Assembly: GCA_014874475.1 (NCBI GenBank)
Contig: JADBJJ010000027.1
Span: 95,793 to 159,792, forward strand
Source of the DNA: Chloroflexota bacterium
GTDB taxonomy: Bacteria > Chloroflexota > Anaerolineae > B4-G1 > DUEL01
Reading direction: 5' to 3'
DNA: 64,000 nucleotides
Shown here: one piece after another, positions 38,681-63,872 of the stretch
Layout: each line of letters begins with the position of its first letter
How positions within the stretch are numbered: position 1 is the first letter of the stretch
The notes under the pieces: generated by a model
Database searches by the model: none
What the model was told of the DNA's origin: nothing
What the model saw: only the letters and a program-made list of their open reading frames with translations
Program-made: the position numbers and the translations under genes

Positions 38681-39928
38681 TTACCCCTTCGGCCACGGGG
38701 GCTTAGGATAGACGAATTCCGCCGTTGCCCACTTCTCGGGCCCGACGACCTCGTACACGCCGTTGATCCACTGGCCGATTTCCCCGGTGTGGCAGTCCTT
38801 GGAGAGCAGGCCGTTCTCAAACCAGGTGTCCCCCAGCACCGTCTGGAAGCGCTCTGTGGCGATGATATCGCGAATCTTCTTCTGGTCTAGGGTGCCAGCC
38901 TTCTCTATAGCCTGCTTCCAGATTTCCAGGCCCGCCCAGTAGAGCGGATGCCCCCAGTAGTCCTGGACGTCTATAGGCTTGCCCGCATACAGTTTCTCGG
39001 CCAGCGCCCGGGCGGCATCGGACTGCTTGGGGCTGTAGGATGTGAAACCGATAACTCCTTCGGTGGCGGGGCCGAACGCAGTATAGTAGAACCCGAAGTT
39101 GACGCCGGGACCGCCGACCCAGGCCTTGGGGTTGAAATCCAGTTCTATGGAGAGCGCGGTCGCAGGCATAATCTGGTCGGGATAGGCAAAGCAGCAGAAG
39201 ACGTCCGGGTTTGCCGCCTTCGCATCCCGGATGATGGGCGAGAGGTCTTTCATATCCGGCGGGATGCTCTTCACACCGAGAATCTCAATGCCCACTTTGG
39301 GGAACTCAATCCCCGCCACGCCGGAGTACTCAATGCCGTGGAGGTCAGCGATGTAGGCGATGTAGGCTGTCTTGGCACCCTTCTTGGACAGCAACTCAGC
39401 CAGGACGGGCAACTGGTACCAGTCGGAGAAACTCAGGGTGACAAACACGTAGGGCAGGCTGGGGAGCATGTCTTTAATGGTGGTGGCGCCTCCCTCGGCA
39501 GTGATCAGCACATACCCGTACTTATTGGCGATGGGGGCCTGAGCGAAGATGAACGAGGTGCCGCATGCGGGCCAGAGGAAATCCACCTTGTCCTCAACGA
39601 TCAACTTCTCCGTCAGCCTCGTCATCGTGCCTACATCGGTTTTGTCGTCGTAGACGATCAGTTCAATGGGCAGTTTCTTGCCGTACTCCTCCACGTAGAC
39701 TCCACCGGCATCGTTGACCTCTTTGACAAAGGTCTCATAGACCGGTCTGAAGGCGGAATCCCCAACGATCGCTTGCGGGCCGGAAAGGGGCCTGGACATC
39801 CCGACGACAATCTTGTCCTTGGCGGGCTTGGGGGTCACTTTTGGAGCGCAAGCGCTCAGCGCCAGTCCGGCACCGGCCACAGCCACGCCCCGAAGGAACT
39901 CCCGGCGGGTCCAACCTTTGGTAGCCAT
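38681..39928 (-). CDS. Periplasmic substrate-binding protein (LivJ/K-like) with a Tat-type signal.
   Basis: 'TRREFLRGVAVAGAGLALSAC' is a twin-arginine plus lipobox signal. The type-I PBP fold is present. Confidence 0.7.
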   Translation of the reverse strand: MATKGWTRREFLRGVAVAGAGLALSACAPKVTPKPAKDKIVVGMSRPLSGPQAIVGDSAFRPVYETFVKEVNDAGGVYVEEYGKKLPIELIVYDDKTDVGTMTRLTEKLIVEDKVDFLWPACGTSFIFAQAPIANKYGYVLITAEGGATTIKDMLPSLPYVFVTLSFSDWYQLPVLAELLSKKGAKTAYIAYIADLHGIEYSGVAGIEFPKVGIEILGVKSIPPDMKDLSPIIRDAKAANPDVFCCFAYPDQIMPATALSIELDFNPKAWVGGPGVNFGFYYTAFGPATEGVIGFTSYSPKQSDAARALAEKLYAGKPIDVQDYWGHPLYWAGLEIWKQAIEKAGTLDQKKIRDIIATERFQTVLGDTWFENGLLSKDCHTGEIGQWINGVYEVVGPEKWATAEFVYPKPPWPKG

Positions 39929-40038: not shown

Positions 40039-41760
40039 TTAAAAATCAAAAACACTATCCAGTTCCTCATCTCGGATGACGAAGACTTTGTTATGGGGCG
40101 GCAGGGGCTCTTCGTAGAAGAACCGGGGCAGTCGGTCGTCCTCTTTCGTGAAGCCCGCCTTCCGGTTGAACTCCCGCTCCGCGTTCAGCACCCGTCGGCC
40201 CAGGCCGAAGGGAAATTCATCGGGCTCCAGCGGCCGGCCCAGTCTGGCGCTGATGGCCTTGCTGACCACCTCAAACCCCTCCGGGCTCAGCAGAGAGACG
40301 CTCGCCATAAAGCACATCCCCAGCGTGTCGTAGGCGGCAATCGCGATCTGGAGGAACCGGGAAGTCTCCACCTGCCCCTCAGGGCTCAGCGGGTTCAGCG
40401 CACCTGTCAGGTATGCCCCAACTACGTTCCCCGCCGTGTGGTCTGCTCCCATCGGCGAGGTGGCGTAGGTTACGCCGTTCCCCAGCATTGCCCGGGGGTC
40501 GTAGGCGGCAATTGTCTGCCCCTTGACCGCAGGGACGCGGGGGTTATTGAAGTGCTTGCCCACCGCGACTCCGCCGCCCCCCAGAATCCGACCCAACTCC
40601 GTACCCCTGCCGATTTCCTCCACCATCTCCAGGACGGCTTCGGCGTCCCCGAACTGCCGGTACCCAGCATCCAGCGCCACTGCGATGGCTGCCCCGGTGC
40701 TCATCGTGTCTATCCCGATGTTGTCGCACATATAGTCCAGCCGGGCAATCACATCCAGGTCGGTGATGCCGGTCATCCCACCCATCGCCCAGATAGTCTC
40801 ATACTCCAGGGAACTGGTAACATACTTGCTGTCCTTATCCACATAGACGTTGGAGCAGTGGATGATGCACTGGGCACATCCCTGGTGGGTGGGATTTCCT
40901 CCCCGCTGCTGGATGATTTCGGCCATCCGCTCTCCACAGATGTTTTCCCAGCCGTCCAGTACCCCCTTCCGCGCGTTGTAACTGGGGAAGGCTCCCATTG
41001 TGTTGACCGGCGCCACCAGGGCTGCGGTGCCCAGTTTGGGCATCACTTCGGCATTCATCGGGTCCGATTTGACCATCTGGACAATGGCCTGGACGGCCTC
41101 TTTGAAAGCCTGGGGGTCCGCGATGGGGTCGGCGCTCTTGCCGTGCTGATCCACCACGATGGCTTTGAGGCCCTTGGCCCCCATCACTGCCCCCATGCCG
41201 CCCCGTCCCGCAGCCCGGCAGGGATGATTATCCACATCGGAGGATTGAACGGACGCAATGGGCATCCGGTACTCGCCCGCCGGCCCAATACAGAGTACCG
41301 AATTGTCCTTCCCGTAGATTTCCATGAGCCGCTCTACCAGCGGGTACGTCCGCATCCCCCAATATTCCTGGGCTGGGACCAGGCTGGCGTTCCCTTCACG
41401 GTCAATCCGAAGGATGTAGAGTTCTCCTTCCGGCGCCTGGCCCTCCACGATGATGGCCGTGATGCCCAGGCGGCCCAGAGAGGCTCCCATTGTCCCTCCG
41501 ACGTTGCTCTCTTTGATCCCGCCCGTCAGCGGGCTCTTGGCCCCGATGGAGGTGCGGCTGGTATTGGGGAGTGTCGTGCCGCTCAGGAGTCCGGGGGCGA
41601 CAATCAGTTTGTTCTCCGGCCCCAGAGGGTCACAGTGGGCGGGCACTTCGGCGTTGACGATGGTGGATGTCAGCCCCCGGCCCCCAAGCCCCGTGTACGC
41701 CAGAGGCACATCCTCCACACGGATGGCCCTGCGGGTCATATCTACGCGGATCAGTTTCAT
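40039..41760 (-). CDS. Aldehyde:ferredoxin oxidoreductase (tungsten-containing AOR family).
   Basis: The AOR N-terminal signature is 'MKLIRVDMTRR…GLGGRGL…'. The product is about 570 aa. AAGGAGG lies before the ATG. Confidence 0.75.
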   Translation of the reverse strand: MKLIRVDMTRRAIRVEDVPLAYTGLGGRGLTSTIVNAEVPAHCDPLGPENKLIVAPGLLSGTTLPNTSRTSIGAKSPLTGGIKESNVGGTMGASLGRLGITAIIVEGQAPEGELYILRIDREGNASLVPAQEYWGMRTYPLVERLMEIYGKDNSVLCIGPAGEYRMPIASVQSSDVDNHPCRAAGRGGMGAVMGAKGLKAIVVDQHGKSADPIADPQAFKEAVQAIVQMVKSDPMNAEVMPKLGTAALVAPVNTMGAFPSYNARKGVLDGWENICGERMAEIIQQRGGNPTHQGCAQCIIHCSNVYVDKDSKYVTSSLEYETIWAMGGMTGITDLDVIARLDYMCDNIGIDTMSTGAAIAVALDAGYRQFGDAEAVLEMVEEIGRGTELGRILGGGGVAVGKHFNNPRVPAVKGQTIAAYDPRAMLGNGVTYATSPMGADHTAGNVVGAYLTGALNPLSPEGQVETSRFLQIAIAAYDTLGMCFMASVSLLSPEGFEVVSKAISARLGRPLEPDEFPFGLGRRVLNAEREFNRKAGFTKEDDRLPRFFYEEPLPPHNKVFVIRDEELDSVFDF

Positions 41761-41771
41761 TGCAGACCTCC

Positions 41772-42872
41772 TTAGTGCTCCATGCGTAGGACTGGCTTAA
41801 TCACACGGCCCGCCTCCATATCATGAACAGCCCGCCCGATTTCCTCAAAGGGGTAGTATGTAATCAACCGGTCAAAGGGGAAACGACCCTGACGGTACAG
41901 TTCCACCAGTCTGGGGATGAAGAGGTCCGGGATGGCATCGCCCCCGAGGATGCCCCGGACCACCCGACCGTTCATCAACAGGTCCATATCCAGGGCCACC
42001 TCTGTGCCAGGCGGGACCACGCCGATCAGGCCACAGACTCCCAGACGAGGGAGAGAGTCCACTGCCTGCCGCAGGACTTTCGGATTCCCCACGCACTCCA
42101 GAGTGAATTGGGCTCCGCCACCGGTGATCTCCCGGATAGCATCCACGGGGTTCACTTCGGCCGCGTTGACGGTGTGCGTCGCGCCTAATTCTCGGGCCAC
42201 CGCCAGACGCTCCGGGTTGATGTCCACCGCGATGATAGTTGTACATCCGCAGACTATCGCCCCCAGAATAGCGCTCATTCCCACTGTGCCAATACCGAAC
42301 ACCGCGATGGAATCCCCCGGCCCGGCCTGAAGCGAATTGATGACCGCTCCCGCACCGGTCATCACGCCACAGCCCATAGGGGCCAATACGTCCAGAGGCA
42401 CATCGTCCGGCACTTTGACCACATTCCGCTCATTAGCCAGTGCAAAGGTGGCAAATGAGGACTGGCAGAAAAAGGAGCCGTGGACGGCCTGATGGTCTTT
42501 GTGGAGGGTTATGCTGCCATCCGGTCGGGCGCCGTGGAAATTGTGCAGGAAGAAGTTCAGGCAGTAGAGGACCTTACTCGCCTTGCATGCGGAGCATGTT
42601 CCGCAATAATCCCAGGTCATAATCACATGGTCGCCCGGTTTGACTTTGGTCACCCGCGCGCCGACCTTCTCCACAATGCCAGCCCCTTCGTGCCCGAAGA
42701 CGCTGGGCGGCTCAGGGATCGGCAGGTGACCAGCCCGAGCACCCAGGTCGGTGTGGCAGATACCCGAAGCGACGATGCGGACCAGCACCTCGTCGTCCCT
42801 GGGCTCATCCAGTTCCAGTTCCTCAATCTGGAAATCCCCCCCGGTCTCAAAAATGACGGCCGCTTTGACCTT
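41772..42872 (-). CDS. Zn-dependent alcohol dehydrogenase (MDR family).
   Basis: 'GICHTDL' and 'GHEGAGIVEKVG' are the motifs. GGGAGGG lies before ATG 42872. Confidence 0.7.
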   Translation of the reverse strand, partial: KVKAAVIFETGGDFQIEELELDEPRDDEVLVRIVASGICHTDLGARAGHLPIPEPPSVFGHEGAGIVEKVGARVTKVKPGDHVIMTWDYCGTCSACKASKVLYCLNFFLHNFHGARPDGSITLHKDHQAVHGSFFCQSSFATFALANERNVVKVPDDVPLDVLAPMGCGVMTGAGAVINSLQAGPGDSIAVFGIGTVGMSAILGAIVCGCTTIIAVDINPERLAVARELGATHTVNAAEVNPVDAIREITGGGAQFTLECVGNPKVLRQAVDSLPRLGVCGLIGVVPPGTEVALDMDLLMNGRVVRGILGGDAIPDLFIPRLVELYRQGRFPFDRLITYYPFEEIGRAVHDMEAGRVIKPVLRMEH

Positions 42873-43069
42873 CATAATATCCCTCCCGTTTTGAAGGACG
42901 GTTTTTGCGGCGGCTGCAGGCTGCCGCAAAAAACCTTCGGCCCTTACACTCCCGGGCTGGTGAGGCCACCAGCCCCTGCCCGGCGAATCAGGAGGCTTGT
43001 TGTCTGCCGGAATCGCCTGTCAACAAGCCTGACAGGCCCCCAGAAAGGGGGGCCTGTCAGGATGCAAGT

Positions 43070-44410
43070 TCAGTATCCGCCGTATTCTTTGGCCGCCTCC
43101 ACCATCGCCTTCACGTTCTCTGGCTTCGCCTCGTCAAAGAACGATCCGTTGGAGATGATGAGGCCACCATCCTTCCCGGCCACTTCTATGATTCGCTTGA
43201 CGTAGGCCCGGACCTCGTCCGGCGTCCCCAGATTCAGCAGGGAGGACGGCACATTGCCCATGATGCAGGCGTTCTGGCCGAGGGTCCGCTTGGCATCCGC
43301 CATGTCGGTCAGGTCAATCATCCACAATGTCTTGCCCCGAGGCAGGTCCTTTACCACCTCCAGGCGGGAACTGTAGCCACCCTCGGCAGCCGGCAGCGGG
43401 ACGCAGCCTCCTTCAATCAGGCCCAGGATGACTTCCTTCAGTGTGGGCCAGTAGAAGTTCTTGAACTGTTCGTCGGAGAGGAAGCCATCGGCGCCCTTGT
43501 GGAGTGGGATGAAGATGAGCGGATTGCCGGTCGCTTGAGCGGAGTTGATTCCCATTTGGATCATCAAGGGGGTAAGGACCTCCATCGCATTGAGGAGTTT
43601 TTGGGGCCGCCGGTAAATATCCAGCATGATCCCCCGGGTGCCCCGGAGAGTATCGCCGATGACGTCAAACGGGGCCTTGGTAAAGCCTCCCAGAAGCGTC
43701 GGATATCCGAGGGTGGCCAACTCCACGTCCAAGCCACCGATGGGCACCACCCATTTCAGGGCTTCGGCGCCGGCCTCAAAGAGAGCCTGGAACGTCGCCT
43801 GAACCGGGGGCAGGCCAAAGGGAATGAAGGTGAGGGCCAGGCCGTACATCTCCAGGATGCCAGGGAAGAAGGGGAGCATCTGGAAGCCACCCAATACCCC
43901 AAAGACCCGAGGCAGGTAAACGTGGATGAAGTAGCCCGTGGGGTCCTGGATCAGGGCATCGTACTCCTCCGGCTTCATATACTCGCCTTCGTTGCACTGA
44001 TAACAGCAATCTGGAGCCACCCCATGGCCAGGCCAGGAGTACAATTTGTAGTCCAGAATCTCAAAGAACCTTCCCGGACCGGGGGCGTATGCGCCCCACT
44101 GCAAATCCGGATCAAAGTCCAGGATGAACTTCTTGAAGGCCGCGGCGCACTTCTCGTAATCGTACATAGCCTCCTGGACGGTCATCCCGGCATACTTCCA
44201 GGGGAACATGCTGGGGAAAATGGTCACCGGGACCCGGTCTGGCAACTTTTCCATCTCAATCGCGGCCTTGACCCGGAGGATTCGCTCTTTATATTTCTTC
44301 TCGGCTTCCGGACTCTGGAAGGGGAGAGGATTCCCCTGGGGATCTTTCGGTGAGAGTTTCCCCTGCCAGAGCGCTTCTCGCTTTTCGTCGGGTGACAACT
44401 GAGGATTCAT
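43070..44410 (-). CDS. Uroporphyrinogen-decarboxylase (URO-D)-like methyltransferase (corrinoid-dependent methyltransferase family, MtaA/MtvB-like).
   Basis: It has the URO-D-like fold and is immediately downstream of a corrinoid protein gene. GGAGGT lies before the ATG. Confidence 0.5.
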   Translation of the reverse strand: MNPQLSPDEKREALWQGKLSPKDPQGNPLPFQSPEAEKKYKERILRVKAAIEMEKLPDRVPVTIFPSMFPWKYAGMTVQEAMYDYEKCAAAFKKFILDFDPDLQWGAYAPGPGRFFEILDYKLYSWPGHGVAPDCCYQCNEGEYMKPEEYDALIQDPTGYFIHVYLPRVFGVLGGFQMLPFFPGILEMYGLALTFIPFGLPPVQATFQALFEAGAEALKWVVPIGGLDVELATLGYPTLLGGFTKAPFDVIGDTLRGTRGIMLDIYRRPQKLLNAMEVLTPLMIQMGINSAQATGNPLIFIPLHKGADGFLSDEQFKNFYWPTLKEVILGLIEGGCVPLPAAEGGYSSRLEVVKDLPRGKTLWMIDLTDMADAKRTLGQNACIMGNVPSSLLNLGTPDEVRAYVKRIIEVAGKDGGLIISNGSFFDEAKPENVKAMVEAAKEYGGY

Positions 44411-44437: not shown

Positions 44438-45070
44438 TTATTGAACGCCGATCCATTTCTTGGCCAGAGACACGCCGGTCACGGCGTCCCTCCCGTAGGC
44501 GTCTGCGCCGGTGTAAGTCCGCACATGCTCGTCCACCGAGCCGCCGCCGATCATTACTTTCACCTTGTCCCGTAGCCCGGCCTCCTCCAGCGCCTGGATG
44601 GTCGCTTTCATGGAGTCATAGGCCAGGGTGAGGAACCCGCTCAGGCCGACGACCTGGGGCTGGAAATCCCGTACTGCCTCCACAAACTTCTGCGGGGGAA
44701 CGTCCACGCCCAGGTCCAGGACCTCAAAGCCGTTGGCATCCAGCATAAAGGTCACGATGTTCTTGCCGATGTCGTGGATGTCTCCCTGGACGGTGCCAAT
44801 GAGGACCCGCCCGAGCCGCTTGACCTCCGGGGATTCGGCCAGTTTGGGTTTGAGGATTTCGGCGATCTGGCCCATAATCTCACCAGCCATCATCAGTTCC
44901 GGGAGGAAATAGACACCCTTCTCGTACTGCTGGCCGATGATGTCCATTGCCTGCCGGGCCGCATCCAGGATCGCCATGGGCTTGACGCCCGTATCCAGCA
45001 TGTCTCGGACTAATTGGATGGCCTCTTCTTCTCTCATCTCGGCAATGGCATTGACCAGTTTTTCTGACAT
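44438..45070 (-). CDS. Cobalamin-binding corrinoid protein (MtaC/MtbC-like; B12-binding cap plus Rossmann domain).
   Basis: The DxHxxG motif is 'GDIHDIGKN', and the Rossmann part is 'GLSGFLT…IGGG'. AGGAGGA lies before ATG 45070. Confidence 0.75.
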   Translation of the reverse strand: MSEKLVNAIAEMREEEAIQLVRDMLDTGVKPMAILDAARQAMDIIGQQYEKGVYFLPELMMAGEIMGQIAEILKPKLAESPEVKRLGRVLIGTVQGDIHDIGKNIVTFMLDANGFEVLDLGVDVPPQKFVEAVRDFQPQVVGLSGFLTLAYDSMKATIQALEEAGLRDKVKVMIGGGSVDEHVRTYTGADAYGRDAVTGVSLAKKWIGVQ

Positions 45071-45350
45071 TTTATCCTCCTGCTGAAAGTAGAATGGGGA
45101 GATCAAACGAAGAGTTTTTTCACTTGAGGAATGACTTGAGGGATACGTTCAGAGTACGGGCACCTCCTGTTACAGTTTATACGACCGCCTTTGATTGTAA
45201 ATAGATGCCCCCTCAGGGAACCAGGGGGAATGGCCAGAGGCTCTGTGGAGCCTGAAGGTACACGAAGCTCTGTTCTTCGTACCCACCTCGTTCCAGTTCG
45301 CTGGGGCGCAGGTGAAGGTCCGACCCGACGTGTTACGCGTGGTGGAGTTG

Positions 45351-45379
45351 CTCTGCTATAATTATACACTGGTATAGGG
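45351..45379 (-). promoter_or_regulatory. Sigma70-type promoter (TTGACA-N17-TATAAT on the minus strand) with an embedded TATAC-N4-GTATA palindrome. It drives the corrinoid/methyltransferase operon through a ~270-nt 5' UTR.
   Basis: The reverse complement reads cTTGACAatttccctataccagtgTATAATtat. The same motif recurs at 61810-61838. Confidence 0.5.
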
Positions 45380-45384
45380 AAATT

Positions 45385-45559
45385 GTCAAGGCCGTTCGGG
45401 GGTATAAGCGGACGGCGTCGGTGTTGAATGTGAGCAGCCTGTTAGGAGAATTGAGGAGAGGGAAGATTTCCCTGGCGGAACTGATGGCCGCATAAGAAAA
45501 AGGCGGTAAATGGGGGGATATTTGAAATTCAAACTCTATGCTAATTTTGGAACAATCAC
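45385..45559 (+). mobile_element. Solo right-end fragment (~175 bp) of an IS1-family element related to 3701-4582, in inverted orientation.
   Basis: It is about 90% identical to the reverse complement of 3701-3870, including the transposase C-terminus (…NVSSLLGELRRGKISLAELMAA*) and the terminal GGAACAATCAC. Confidence 0.6.
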
Positions 45560-45856
45560 CGTGTCCCCCGTTCCCTTATAGACTGCAACCTGCGGGTATG
45601 GGCAGATGGGACGAGTCCGAAGCACATTGATGCGAAGTGTATCAAACCTGGCCGCGATGATCTGGTCGGGCGCTACCCCGTCCTCCACCCATGCCTGGAT
45701 GGCCGCGAGCCAGTCAATGGTATCCGGACCATCCCCGCCTCCGCAGTGTGTTACCCCGGGCAGCAGAAAGAGGCGGAAGAACTTCTGTGTCTTCTCCAGA
45801 CCGTCCATTGCTTTGACGACACTGTTAGGTAGTTGATGTTGTTTCCCTACACTCAC
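45536..45856 (-). pseudogene. C-terminal ~100-aa remnant of a tannase/feruloyl-esterase-family gene. Its last 7 codons and stop are supplied by the IS end.
   Basis: 'FRLFLLPGVTHCGGGDGPD…AIQAWVEDGVAPDQIIA' matches the family C-terminus. There is no N-terminal catalytic part, because the upstream sequence is another gene. Confidence 0.45.
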
Positions 45857-60051: not shown

Positions 60052-60548
60052 TGGATGCCTCCTTGCGGAAAAGTGAGCATGAGAGGTGGATCGGTCTATG
60101 CTGTGAAAGAAAACAAAATGGGGGTTGAGGACGGCGGATTTGCCCTTCTCCTCAACCCCCGTTGATATCTCCCCTTCCCCGCGTCCCAAAGTGGACGCGA
60201 AAGGATAGAGGCGGAAGAAAGCCAGTGAGATAGCGCTCGTTACATCGGCACAAACGGGAGCAGAATAAATACTCGCTATCCATAGAGTGCCCAACCGAGG
60301 AGTAGTCGCCCTGGAGATACTCTTTTACGATGCCGGCGATAAGTGTCTCATACAATGATACAGGGTATCATTCTGTAATACATTGTACCATATTTTGTTG
60401 CATTTGTCAAGACCCTTTCATCGGTCGTCGGCCTCTCCCACGGTCAGGATCGCGGTGTTCTGAGGCAACTCGGCCCCGGATAGGGCAGTCGTCAAGGTCA
60501 GCAGCATCTCTCTGGCCATAATGCACCATACAGGGCCGGCGCAAGTCC

Positions 60549-61104
60549 TTGACCGGGAGGAGGATGTACAGGAATACTGATGGGCGGGTCTACGTCGGGG
60601 ATGGGCTGGTCGTGCGCTCCGAGGGGTCGCGCGGGGGGCTGGGGATGCGGGAGTTATCTCTGCCAGCGGCCATCATAGTCGGGATGGTCTGGCGGATTCC
60701 GTCGCGATGGTCACCGATGGACGGTTCTCCGGGGCGACCCGCGGGCCTGCATTGGGCACGTCTGCCCGGAGGCGGCGGTGGGCAGGCCGCTGGCAGCCCT
60801 GCGGGGCGGAGGTGTCATTGAGACGGACATCCCGGCCCGGACCCTGAACGTCCGCCTGAGCGAAGACAAATTACGGGTCCGGATGAGGGACTGGATGCTG
60901 CCAAAGGAGGAGATTCCGCCGGGATTTTTGCGCTTCTGTACCCGCTATGTGGGCGCTGCCCACCAGGGGGCGATGCTGGGGGAATCGTTGCCGAGTTGGA
61001 AATCTACCTTGTCCCGCTTCTTGAAACCTCCGCGTTCTCTGGGCCCTCTCCAGCGAGTTCAATCTCTGGGGGTCTCTTTGTCGGGAGGGAAGAAATCCTC
61101 GTAG
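60549..61104 (+). pseudogene. ilvD: Frameshifted 3' remnant (~130 codons) of a dihydroxy-acid dehydratase / phosphogluconate dehydratase (IlvD/EDD family) gene.
   Basis: Frame 1 reads 'LVVRSEGSRGGLGMRELSLPAAIIVG' (compare IlvD [26 protein letters not shown]). Frame 2 reads 'LRGGGVIETDIPARTLNVRLSEDKLRVRMRDW' (IlvD C-terminus). There is no N-terminal part. Confidence 0.5.
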
Positions 61105-61745
61105 CGGACCGTCGCACTGGGCGGCACCACGACGAATTCATCGGGGAGCCAGGGTCCGTAGAGCATCTTCTGGATCAGGTCTGTGGAGCCCAGAATCTCC
61201 TCGTAGCGCAGCCCAAACCGCTCCGCTGTCCGACGGGCGTATTCCCGATACTTCTCCAGCGCGTACTGACCAGTATTGATGAGCGCCAGCCGGGTGTAGT
61301 GGGCCAACATAATGCGAATGAGGCGGTCGGCCCGCTCCTGGCCGTACTGCTGAACCATCCGCTCGTATTCGTTAAAGGGGGTATCGCCTACCTCAATCCA
61401 GCCTTTGGTCAGATAGTACGTCCCAGGCTCCCGGGCGTGCTGCTCCCGATGGGCATCCCGGGAGCCGAGAAAAATGGCGATACAATCATCCACCCGGGGA
61501 ATCACCAGGGGGGACTGACGGGCCTGGATGGCGATGACTGCCTGGGAGCAGAGACCGTAGCCGAGGATGACTGCATCGTAGGGCTTCTGGAGGGCATCTA
61601 TGTGTTGCTGGAGGGTGTGCCGGAGGTGCTCGGGATTGATGTGGAGGCCAAAATCCAGAACTTCGTACTCTGTGCCCTCGGGCATCAGGGGTACCATTTC
61701 CTCAATGACCGTTGCGCAGGCGAGAACAAAGAGTCTCCGGTTCAT
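61059..61745 (-). CDS. DUF1638-like protein (a family often found with corrinoid methyltransferase systems).
   Basis: The start is at 'MNRRLFVLACATVIEE…'. A perfect promoter lies 60 nt upstream. It is divergent from the GntR gene. Confidence 0.4.
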   Translation of the reverse strand: MNRRLFVLACATVIEEMVPLMPEGTEYEVLDFGLHINPEHLRHTLQQHIDALQKPYDAVILGYGLCSQAVIAIQARQSPLVIPRVDDCIAIFLGSRDAHREQHAREPGTYYLTKGWIEVGDTPFNEYERMVQQYGQERADRLIRIMLAHYTRLALINTGQYALEKYREYARRTAERFGLRYEEILGSTDLIQKMLYGPWLPDEFVVVPPSATVRYEDFFPPDKETPRD

Positions 61746-61746
61746 G

Positions 61747-61775
61747 TTGACGAGTCGCTCCGTTCGGGCTATAAT
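61747..61775 (+). promoter_or_regulatory. Sigma70-type promoter TTGACG-N17-TATAAT for the GntR regulator gene.
   Basis: There is exact 17-nt spacing. Confidence 0.45.
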
Positions 61776-61809: not shown

Positions 61810-61838
61810 ATTATACACTGGTATAGAGAAGTTGTCAA
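61810..61838 (-). promoter_or_regulatory. Divergent sigma70-type promoter TTGACA-N17-TATAAT (minus strand) with the TATACACTGGTATA palindrome. It is near-identical to the motif at 45351-45379.
   Basis: The reverse complement reads cTTGACAacttctctataccagtgTATAATatta. The palindrome lies between the GntR promoter and its GTG start. Confidence 0.5.
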
Positions 61839-62579
61839 GTGGGAAATAAGTACGCCATAGACCGGAACTCCTACGAGCCAGCCTACGCGCAACTAGCCCG
61901 CATCCTCAGTATGCAGATTGCCGAAGGAACCTACCGCCCTGGCGACCAGTTGCCCTCTGAGGCCCAGTTGGTTGCCCAGTTTGGTGTCAGTCCGATGACG
62001 GTACGGCGGGCCATCGGACTGTTGCTGGACCGGGGCATCGTCAGCACAGCGCAGGGCAAAGGGACGTTCGTTCGGGGATTGGTCATCTCCGAGGCCACTT
62101 TTCGCCTGCAGGAAATGGGGGAGGAGGAAGCGGAACGCACTGTCCGCCTGCTTCAGGCCACCATTCTTGCAGCCGACGAGCGGGTGGCCCGCAAACTGGC
62201 GGTTCCGAAGGGGACGCGAGTCATCTATCTGCGCCGTCTGGTTTCCCGCGCTGAGGGGCCGACGATGTACCACCGGGAGTATCTCATCTACGACCCTCAT
62301 CGTCCGGTGGTGGAGGCGGAGTTGCAAATTACGTCTCTGGAGGGGCTGTTTCGGGGGAACGGCGGGCAAGGGTTGCGCCGGGGCGATCTTTCCATAGAGG
62401 CGGTGACGCTGACCCCGGAAGAGGCAGAGTTACTGGAGGTTTCTCCAGGTTCTCCGGCCTTCTGTCTGGAGCACATCTTCTATGATTTCACCAACCAGCC
62501 GATAGCCTGGGGATGGTTCATCTGCCGGGCCGACCGCTTCCGGCTGACCACCCGTGTCGGGCCGGATGTGGAGGTGTGA
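61839..62579 (+). CDS. GntR-family (HutC subfamily) transcriptional regulator.
   Basis: The N-terminal wHTH is 'PAYAQLARILSMQIAEGTYRPGDQLPSEAQLVAQFGVSPMTVRRAIGLL'. A UTRA-like effector domain follows. Confidence 0.7.
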   Translation: MGNKYAIDRNSYEPAYAQLARILSMQIAEGTYRPGDQLPSEAQLVAQFGVSPMTVRRAIGLLLDRGIVSTAQGKGTFVRGLVISEATFRLQEMGEEEAERTVRLLQATILAADERVARKLAVPKGTRVIYLRRLVSRAEGPTMYHREYLIYDPHRPVVEAELQITSLEGLFRGNGGQGLRRGDLSIEAVTLTPEEAELLEVSPGSPAFCLEHIFYDFTNQPIAWGWFICRADRFRLTTRVGPDVEV

Positions 62580-62726: not shown

Positions 62727-63368
62727 ATGAACCTGTCCCTTCGGGAAACGATGAAAGAAAAAGTTGCCGGGCTGGACGAGGAGGGGGTTCTGGCCCTGGT
62801 TCGCCAGTCGCTGGAATCGGGCGTGGACCCGGTAGAGATCATTGCGGCCTGCGAAGAGGGGATGCGGCAGGTCGGAGAGAAGTATGAGCAGGGGGTTTTC
62901 TATCTATCGGGGCTGATTATGGCGGGGGAGATATTCCGCCAGGTGCTGGAACTGACCCAGCCGGCCCTTCAGGAGGCGCTGAAAGGGGATGCCTCCGGAC
63001 GGGTGCTCATTGGTACCGCCCACGGCGATATTCACGACATCGGCAAGACGATTGTCCACATCGCCCTGCGCAGTTTTGGCTTTCAGGTGGAAGACCTGGG
63101 GGTAGACGTGCCGCCGCAGCGGTTTGTGGAGCGGGCTCTCACCTGGCAGCCGGATGTCATCGGCATTTCCGGCCTGATCACGTCCTCCTATGGGAGCATG
63201 CGGGAGACCGCCCGTTTATTACGGGCTGCTCTCTCCTACCCCATCCCCATCATCATTGGCGGCGGGATGATGAATGAGCAGATTTGTCGCTTTGTCGGCG
63301 CTGACTACTGGACCAACGACGCCCTCAAGGGCGTGCGGATCTGTGAAGAGATTATCCGCAGCAAATAG
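62727..63368 (+). CDS. Cobalamin-binding corrinoid protein (second copy).
   Basis: 'GDIHDIGKT' (DxHxxG) and the B12-binding Rossmann domain are present. It is about 55% identical to the 44438-45070 product. Confidence 0.75.
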   Translation: MNLSLRETMKEKVAGLDEEGVLALVRQSLESGVDPVEIIAACEEGMRQVGEKYEQGVFYLSGLIMAGEIFRQVLELTQPALQEALKGDASGRVLIGTAHGDIHDIGKTIVHIALRSFGFQVEDLGVDVPPQRFVERALTWQPDVIGISGLITSSYGSMRETARLLRAALSYPIPIIIGGGMMNEQICRFVGADYWTNDALKGVRICEEIIRSK

Positions 63369-63483: not shown

Positions 63484-63513
63484 GAGGCCGGCAATTCGCC
63501 GGCCTCTTTTATT
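63484..63513 (+). terminator. Rho-independent terminator after the corrinoid protein gene.
   Basis: The stem gaggccggc-aattc-gccggcctc is followed by TTTTATT. Confidence 0.6.
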
Positions 63514-63824
63514 GGCCAGGACGACCATTGGGACAGAGCGGGGTGTGTCCCCATTTCGTCGGAAACGGCCTTTTAGGCTCGGACATATTGCGGCTCAGTA
63601 AATGATTCTGGCAATCGCCTACGAGGGGATTTGACCCCTCTTATTCCTCTTGCCCCCTTCTTCTCCAACGCGGAGGGGAAGGGGACAGAAATGGGGTTGG
63701 GGGGGGCGGCCCCAAGGGCTGCTCCCTCCAAACTCCCACGATTTCCCCTGGAACCCTGCGGTGAACCGCCGGGCGAATGAAGCCTGTCAATTTGGGGATA
63801 CACCCGGCAGGGCGTTTGCACTCT

Positions 63825-63872
63825 TGACAATCAGGCTGAAAGGTGTATAATCTGAATGAACGTTCATTCAGG
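63825..63872 (+). promoter_or_regulatory. Sigma70 promoter TTGACA-N17-TATAAT followed by a perfect 20-bp palindrome (CTGAATGAACGTTCATTCAG), the putative TetR operator.
   Basis: The sequence reads cTTGACAatcaggctgaaaggtgTATAATctgaatgaacgttcattcag, immediately upstream of the TetR gene. Confidence 0.5.

Follow-up and report, generated by a model that had tools for sequence, protein, structure and literature searches.

Through corrinoid-dependent methyltransferase systems, anaerobic metabolism is supplied with the methyl groups of methoxylated aromatics, methylamines, betaines and halomethanes. The window, that is the whole 64-kb stretch of DNA analysed here, contains two loci with a gene for a corrinoid protein (CP), and at both of them a nearly identical promoter element precedes genes on the minus strand. 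Beside one of these elements a regulator of the GntR/HutC family is encoded. This raises the question whether the element is a strong promoter that happens to occur twice, or whether it contains an operator for the regulator, as the sequence-only reading had proposed.

A search of the minus strand with TTGACAAYTTCYCTATACCAGTGTATAAT gives two matches in the window, at 45361-45389 and 61810-61838. When up to three mismatches are allowed the number of matches is still two, against 0.00 expected from 100 dinucleotide shuffles, so that the match is indeed far beyond chance in 64 kb. Both sequences quoted in the sequence-only reading are on the minus strand, and its position for copy 2 is correct; copy 1 had been placed at 45351-45379, which is 10 nt too low. 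The 29-mers differ at two positions, not at three as had been counted. In a local alignment the similarity covers 38 nt (45390-45353 against 61839-61802, 33 of 38 identical); it stops there, near the expected transcription start, and the flanks are unrelated. A larger duplication around the copies is thereby ruled out. The two copies and their parts are as follows.

45361-45389, minus strand: copy 1, promoter with predicted operator; exact match, 12/12 in the promoter scan, 30.6 bits with the position weight matrix (PWM)
45389-45384, minus strand: -35 box of copy 1, TTGACA
45383-45367, minus strand: spacer of copy 1
45366-45361, minus strand: -10 box of copy 1, TATAAT
45363-45376: inverted repeat TATAC-N4-GTATA of copy 1
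45368-45383: spacer-centred dyad of copy 1, with the halves ACTGGTAT and AGGGAAAT
61810-61838, minus strand: copy 2, promoter with predicted operator; exact match, 12/12 in the promoter scan, 33.7 bits with the PWM
61838-61833, minus strand: -35 box of copy 2
61815-61810, minus strand: -10 box of copy 2
61812-61825: inverted repeat TATAC-N4-GTATA of copy 2
61817-61832: spacer-centred dyad of copy 2, with the halves ACTGGTAT and AGAGAAGT

Both copies have the hexamers, the 17-nt spacer and the same-strand downstream gene of a sigma-70-type promoter. In the promoter scan, which finds 14 promoter-like sites in the region where 6.0 are expected, their canonical -35/17/-10 arrangement faces the minus-strand genes that they had been proposed to drive. 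The consensus hexamers TTGACA and TATAAT account for 12 of the 29 bases of the shared element. They are also used at other promoters of this genome (five sites with at most one mismatch); such promoters lie at 60382-60410, 61747-61775 and 63824-63851. Since the hexamers are generic in this genome, the non-generic signal is the 17-nt spacer, at which the copies are identical in 15 positions. The inverted repeat TATAC-N4-GTATA described in the sequence-only reading is perfect (5+5) in both copies and occurs nowhere else in the window; a version with a single mismatch is found at one site, within a coding region.

The PWM was built from the first 22 motif positions and trained on other genomes only, with the window left out. 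With it, copy 2 has 33.7 bits and copy 1 has 30.6; the site that comes next reaches 12.3. Above this value the PWM finds no further operator site in the window, and none lies upstream of the gene for an ABC substrate-binding protein (SBP), unlike in some relatives. A 10.9-bit match, TCATACAATGATACAGGGTATC, at 60348-60369 on the plus strand lies in the leader of a nitroreductase gene, just downstream of the minus-strand promoter at 60382-60410, and is probably due to chance. The 9-mer CCGTTCGGG is shared by the gntR promoter and the sequence adjoining copy 1; it occurs four times in the window and was likewise taken as chance.

Copy 1 is followed by a leader and a series of genes on the minus strand.

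45071-45353, minus strand: 5' leader of about 284 nt between copy 1 and the start of corA1
44438-45070, minus strand: corA1, corrinoid protein (Pfam B12-binding and B12-binding_2; NCBIfam methyltransferase cognate corrinoid protein)
43070-44410, minus strand: MT I-type methyltransferase of the URO-D fold, 446 aa (Pfam URO-D, PF01208)
41772-42875, minus strand: Zn-alcohol dehydrogenase (ADH; Pfam)
40039-41760, minus strand: aldehyde:ferredoxin oxidoreductase (AOR; Pfam)
38681-39928, minus strand: ABC substrate-binding protein, SBP (Pfam)

The ATG of corA1 at 45070 has a GGAGG sequence 8 nt upstream, and similarity to relatives starts at this codon. The C-terminal 240 residues of the MT I match the solved CdmB of Acetobacterium (PDB 9rui) with E = 3e-40. 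This protein serves as the MT I in a corrinoid-dependent system that has the O-demethylases as relatives (PMC13222342). The predicted role of the 43070-44410 product is the transfer of a methyl group from the substrate to the corrinoid. Between MT I and ADH there is a gap of 194 nt, between ADH and AOR one of 11 nt, and between AOR and SBP one of 110 nt. The order CP-MT I-ADH-AOR-SBP is kept in seven related loci (L045, L054, L072, L078, L098, L106 and L143) at 70-94% identity, and ADH, AOR and SBP are probably co-transcribed with corA1 and MT I. In five contigs with the copy-1 arrangement the promoter and predicted operator are invariant, while everything upstream of CTTGACAA is unalignable.

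The copy-1 leader has no Rfam match at the gathering score or at E<=10, and its fold is no more stable than that of shuffled sequences (z-score 0.10); on these two results a riboswitch or other known RNA was rejected. A decayed DUF1638 gene in the leader would have allowed the presence of a second copy to be explained by a deletion. Weak blastn matches to the 5' ends of DUF1638 genes were found, and translated and nucleotide alignment gave them no support (the alignment scored 37, and shuffled sequences averaged 31 with sd 6), so this candidate was rejected. Conservation of the leader is patchy, with an invariant block, CAGGAGGTGC, at 45160-45169 in five relatives. A weak terminator-like hairpin is present at 45221-45207. 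A second regulatory layer in the leader, for example attenuation, is possible but unsupported.

At copy 2 the arrangement is divergent.

61059-61745, minus strand: DUF1638 gene, with a leader of about 58 nt (Pfam DUF1638, E = 1e-49)
61747-61775, plus strand: predicted gntR promoter, TTGACG-17-TATAAT, 11/12 in the promoter scan
61839-62579, plus strand: gntR, regulator of the HutC subfamily (Pfam GntR and UTRA)
62727-63368, plus strand: corA2, second corrinoid protein (PF02607 and PF02310), with no methyltransferase gene adjoining
63484-63506, plus strand: GC-rich hairpin of 10 pairs, like an intrinsic terminator, ending the gntR-corA2 operon

The gene content of both loci is that given by the sequence-only reading, with the corrinoid protein and URO-D-like methyltransferase at one and DUF1638, the regulator with its GntR and UTRA domains and the second corrinoid protein at the other. 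DUF1638 has been linked to corrinoid reactivation both genetically and by proteomics (PMC5764234, PMC12478193). CorA1 and CorA2 both carry the cap and Rossmann domains of B12-binding proteins (PF02607 and PF02310) and the sequence DIHDIG (DxHxxG motif). The terminator-like hairpin was called on the minus strand by the scan; when this palindrome is read on the plus strand, TTTTATT comes after it. No homologue of a pterin-binding MT II or of a RACo/RamA-type activase was found in the whole 64-kb window, and in this genome these components must be encoded elsewhere or have been lost.

The GTG start codon of gntR abuts the -35 box of copy 2, and this start is backed by orthologues of the same length. 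The predicted gntR promoter sits just past the start codon of DUF1638 and faces copy 2. It therefore lies upstream of the site, which bears out the earlier placement of the palindrome in the 5' leader of gntR. Judged from the positions of the hexamers, the facing transcripts from the two promoters would overlap by about 20 nt if both are used, and the shared element would be located at about +30 to +57 of the gntR leader. Nine Thermoflexales-like gntR regions have kept the hexamers of the gntR promoter and the operator, whereas the intervening 35 nt differ from region to region in both sequence and length. Copy 2 is conserved in eight Thermoflexales-like relatives, and the adjoining sequence is not.

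Metagenomes were scanned with the DNA motif only, using TATACACTKRTATAGRGAA as the query. The scan returned 115 contigs, about 100 of which carry the corrinoid-methyltransferase/gntR gene set. A gntR orthologue follows the motif directly, on the same strand, in 70 of the 115. Eleven more have DUF1638 to the left of the motif and no gntR hit, five of these stopping at the contig end. In another 11 the motif precedes SBP or CP-MT I operons, and five of them show the copy-1 arrangement at 89-100% identity. About 12 of the 115 have no flanking similarity and look like chance matches. Because a search with the motif alone lands almost exclusively on this gene set, the element is not a generic promoter. 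The sequence-only reading had named a motif common at many unrelated promoters as the outcome that would be fatal to its proposal. A few motif copies occur away from gntR, in front of genes for an acyl-CoA ligase, a family III CoA-transferase and a LivG-like ABC ATPase (contigs L086 at 3444, L129 at 6397, L091 at 3719, L093 at 1323, L176 at 4205 and L117 at 4099). The motif of L117 stands beside a product resembling CO dehydrogenase, as judged from its N-terminal sequence alone. In some lineages the regulon may thus reach beyond the methyltransferase genes.

Orthologues of the gntR product are numerous, with 55-93% identity, and the closest are found in Thermoflexales and Thermoflexus metagenome-assembled genomes (MAGs), which makes a member of the Thermoflexales the probable source of the window. 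We fetched 80 genomic loci by means of the gntR protein, so co-occurrence of the motif with gntR is partly built into this set; this selection bias is lessened, though not abolished, by the motif-seeded metagenome search. Of the 80 loci, 68, from several phyla, have the 29-nt element at a distance of 28-223 nt upstream of gntR, and all 86 hits have the same orientation. Most of the loci that lack it have indel or AT-rich variants or are truncated. On the gntR strand the consensus of this element of 22-29 nt is TTATACACTTATATAGGGAAGTTGTCAAG; its reverse complement, CTTGACAACTTCCCTATATAAGTGTATAA, faces the divergent gene with a -35 box and a -10 box that are separated by a 17-nt spacer. The spacer and the adjacent GntR/HutC orthologues are conserved across Chloroflexota, Thermodesulfobacteriota, Thermoleophilia and Bacillota.

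The gene neighbourhood is conserved along with the element. DUF1638, divergent on the minus strand, adjoins the motif and gntR in 58 of 74 loci, and a corA2-type gene follows gntR in 72 of 74, the median of the gap being 44 nt. Wherever a comparison was possible, which was the case in 76 loci, the gene after gntR is closer to CorA2 than to CorA1. No recognisable methyltransferase gene stands beside corA2 in the window or in any mapped locus of the fetched set. One to three CP and MT I pairs are found further along the minus strand in related loci, and these MT I modules vary in number and sequence near a conserved regulator. The same divergent operon as DUF1638 contains MT II in 52 and a RACo-type activase in 30 of the 80 related loci. 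The presence of a pterin-binding MT II and RACo indicates that the corrinoid methyltransferase system there is complete, with all four components.

In four of the related loci (L054, L045, L072 and L078) the entire copy-1 gene series lies within the same cluster, downstream of DUF1638; a fifth, L050, is arranged in the same way and ends within the AOR gene. This indicates that the window holds a split cluster, each half with its own promoter and predicted operator. Gene fragments flank both loci. Upstream of copy 1, at 45536-45856 on the minus strand, there are the C-terminal 90 residues of a tannase/feruloyl esterase. Just downstream of DUF1638, at 60549-61104 on the plus strand, lies a frame-broken C-terminal piece of a dihydroxy-acid dehydratase, at a place where relatives have CP and MT I. 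These fragments point to rearrangement when the cluster was split.

When 1.08 Mb of related loci were scanned with the PWM, 113 hits of at least 12 bits were obtained, compared with 2 in shuffled sequence. All but one of them (in L081, 12.0 bits) are in upstream regions of gntR or in front of corA1/MT I or SBP operons. Certain variants are common to all sites of a genome. Both copies in the window, like those of close relatives, have ACTGGTATAG, most lineages have ACTTATATAG, and in L010 both sites carry TATATATAAGT. Such sharing within a genome is expected if one trans-acting factor reads all the sites.

It might still be argued that the copies are two strong promoters and nothing else, or else the product of a recent local duplication or the remnant of a repeat element, in each case with no operator, given how much of the 29 nt is made up of hexamers that this genome also uses elsewhere. 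We consider this hardly credible. The spacer is kept across phyla in which the intergenic DNA is otherwise unalignable, the resemblance between the copies ends after 38 nt in unrelated flanks, and the other consensus promoters at 60382-60410 and 63824-63851 have spacers that are unrelated to the shared element. The explanation that we think likely is that each copy is a sigma-70-type promoter whose spacer and part of whose -10 box hold the predicted operator of the adjacent HutC-family repressor. It counts against this explanation that the position in the element which matches T-7 of the -10 box shows little conservation from genome to genome.

The extent and symmetry of the predicted operator were derived from the aligned sites. 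Information content is high over motif positions 1-29 and peaks at 4-22. Two dyads can be recognised. One is TATA-N6-TATA, the family form of TATAC-N4-GTATA, which is centred at 8.5 and has 61% complementary pairs over 109 unique sites. The other is ACTT-N8-AAGT, which is centred at 14.5 (positions 7-22) and has 65% complementary pairs over the same number of unique sites; this dyad takes up the 17-nt spacer, with its centre between the hexamers. Within the window the TATAC dyad is the better of the two: it pairs at 5 of 8 positions in both copies, and the spacer-centred dyad does so in copy 2 but has 3 of 8 in copy 1. A third possible description is provided by an 8-bp direct repeat in the family consensus, TTATACAC/TTATATAG.

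The sequence-only reading had equated the operator with TATAC-N4-GTATA. The repeat is present, but the conserved footprint is longer (positions 1-22, or 1-29 with the -35 box) and the second dyad is equally conserved. It is conceivable, though in our judgement doubtful, that the operator is exactly this repeat, spanning the -10 box and the half of the spacer next to it, and that the conserved GGGAAGT is promoter context only. Such an operator would be perfect in both window copies, its family form has nearly the same share of complementary pairs as the other dyad, and its half-sites are 6 nt apart, as in the dre sites of NagR (PMC4333415). However, positions 16-22 (G-G-G-A-A-G-T, 0.9-1.9 bits each), which are part of neither hexamer, would then lack an explanation; only ACTT-N8-AAGT accounts for them. 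In some lineages a perfect 16-bp palindrome, ACTTATATATATAAGT, is centred at 14.5 instead. Moreover, the TATA arms are self-complementary and also form the -10 box, so the symmetry of the TATAC repeat may be a by-product. We tentatively favour the spacer-centred dyad as the one that would be read, possibly together with the TATA dyad.

In other lineages a second operator copy without a -35 box overlaps the plus-strand -10 box in front of gntR or of CoA-ligase/CoA-transferase genes. The window has only the first design, with the operator between -35 and -10. One subgroup of Anaerolineae has a perfect palindrome, GTGACAAATGTCAC, directly after the motif, between the operator and gntR, and its -35 box is weakened to TTGAAC. 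This arrangement is seen in L053 (7917-7945) and in about 18 other loci (for example L023, L032, L047, L061, L073 and L075-L077); the palindrome, which is absent from the window, may be a second binding site.

The regulator, of 246 aa, contains a GntR winged helix-turn-helix domain (PF00392, E = 4.5e-21, residues 16-78) and a UTRA domain (PF07702, E = 1.3e-23, residues 101-235), and aligns over its full length with DasR and NagR. These two, DasR and NagR/YvoA, are also its closest solved relatives (E = 2e-20 and 2e-15). None of the named HutC-type equivalogs in NCBIfam (PhnF, HutC, TreR, PhnR) reached its cut-off; PhnF scored best, with 113 bits against a cut-off of 157, and HutC had 96 against 220. 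Hardly any variation is seen among the orthologues in the recognition helix, SPMTVRRAI, which matches the invariance of the operator. In NagR, the base contacts are made by Arg38 and Arg48, which read G-5 and G-4, and by Gly69 in the wing (PMC4333415). The equivalents here are Ala42, Pro52 and Gly73 by alignment. Neither arginine is present in any orthologue, the two columns being A/S/G and P/G/S, so the two-arginine recognition of dre-type sites is absent from this family. The absence of the arginines fits the AT-rich family operator. As the guanine-reading arginines of NagR, DasR and FadR are replaced, the recognition code cannot be copied from those structures. The column of NagR Arg48 (P/G/S) showed a tendency to covary with operator variants, with no strict rule.

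DasR from Streptomyces and NagR/YvoA from Bacillus subtilis share the architecture of the regulator described here, a GntR winged helix-turn-helix with a UTRA domain. They repress by binding at promoters, to imperfect palindromes of 15-16 bp, and natural dre sites are also asymmetric (PMC4333415). Identity to these proteins is low, and the Ala42/Pro52 pair replaces the two arginines. Their regulon concerns the use of amino sugars, whereas a corrinoid methyltransferase system is found here. The window sequence ACTGGTATAGAGAAGT matches the dre consensus, ACTGGTCTAGACCAGT, at 13 of 16 positions. The family operator (ACTTATAT joined to AGGGAAGT) is AT-rich and, unlike dre, lacks the GG.

A second comparison is offered by NanR of E. 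coli, a GntR-family repressor acting on (GGTATA)3, with GGTATA-like units every 8-9 bp (PMC8012715). The window sites contain GGTATAG, and the family consensus has the 8-bp direct repeat. In contrast to the present regulator, NanR belongs to the FadR subfamily and has an FCD instead of a UTRA effector domain. There are two units here rather than three, combined with dyad symmetry, and the repeat is one of three possible descriptions of the site.

Among methyltransferase systems, the regulated genes resemble CdmBCA of Acetobacterium dehalogenans and the O-demethylases in having a CP and a CdmB-like MT I, to which DUF1638 is added. Compared with the usual set of MT I, CP, MT II and activase, the window is without the last two, while related loci have both in one divergent operon. 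No regulator is known from the Acetobacterium systems, and a 2026 study called the way in which they are regulated largely unexplored (PMC13222342). GntR genes beside corrinoid methyltransferase genes were mentioned in passing for Eubacterium (PMC9303578). A literature search for GntR with corrinoid, DUF1638 and O-demethylase with Anaerolineae found no description of this regulator, operator or regulon. The proposed switch is of an ordinary kind, with a regulator and a site that seem not to have been described before.

A position between consensus hexamers is the classic one for occlusion. We infer from the sequence that the regulator binds the site and represses; the start sites, the extent of the operons and the effector have the same basis. 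A dimer of the regulator, or possibly two, would lie between and partly over the hexamers and would keep RNA polymerase off both minus-strand promoters. In the repressed state corA1, MT I, ADH, AOR and the transporter genes at copy 1 would be silent, as would DUF1638 at copy 2. Protein bound at copy 2, about 30-57 nt downstream of the gntR promoter, would in addition limit expression of gntR and corA2, which amounts to negative autoregulation: by obstructing transcription from the facing promoter, the regulator is proposed to limit its own synthesis and that of CorA2. A signal at the UTRA domain would then release the regulator, so that both loci open together.

The site could also be real and be read in another way, with CorA2 as a partner of the regulator, with a positive action, or by a regulator that is encoded elsewhere. 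This appears rather unlikely to us. In its favour, a dedicated corA2 without an adjoining methyltransferase gene so regularly follows gntR (72 of 74 loci), and the variation of methyltransferase modules beside a conserved regulator is hard to fit with a single substrate-like effector. On the other hand, synteny with the motif is shown by no further regulator, and related loci lack the window's IclR and TetR genes. An operator between consensus hexamers at the optimal 17-nt spacing argues against activation, and UTRA domains normally bind small molecules. Repression by the adjacent HutC-family regulator remains the reading that we prefer.

What is least ordinary here is that the regulator is obligately paired with a corrinoid protein whose gene has no methyltransferase gene adjoining it, while the modules nearby vary; corA2 may be tied to regulation rather than to catalysis. 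A precedent is AerR/PpaA, a B12-binding co-regulator of CrtJ/PpsR (PMC5362033, PMC9144470). CorA2 is encoded with a transcription factor and not with an enzyme partner, and it consists of two B12-binding Pfam domains. In contrast to AerR, it is paired with a regulator from another family, and it has the look of an ordinary corrinoid protein of methyltransferase systems; the comparison is a lead only. By analogy with the antirepressor AerR, CorA2 might be the sensor of the switch and not a catalytic carrier, relaying the state of its cobalt to the HutC regulator; we regard this as a long shot. The cobalt would be methylated by whichever MT I module is active, or would be unmethylated or oxidised. 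If this were true, one repressor-operator pair could control interchangeable methyltransferase modules for different methyl donors.

Our understanding of this class of switch is unchanged by these findings. They provide a concrete putative pair of regulator and operator whose sequence signature is clear. Many uncultured Anaerolineae and Thermoflexales have this pair conserved, as do some Thermodesulfobacteriota, Thermoleophilia and Bacillota. The pair would allow regulons to be predicted from sequence, and it offers a testable repressor for finding the inducer as well as a compact promoter-operator part. Elsewhere in the window, the plus-strand promoter at 63824-63851 (TTGACA-16-TATAAT) is followed by a perfect 20-bp palindrome, CTGAATGAACGTTCATTCAG (63852-63871), in front of a TetR-family gene. 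The stretch 63824-63871 looks like a self-regulated TetR promoter-operator.
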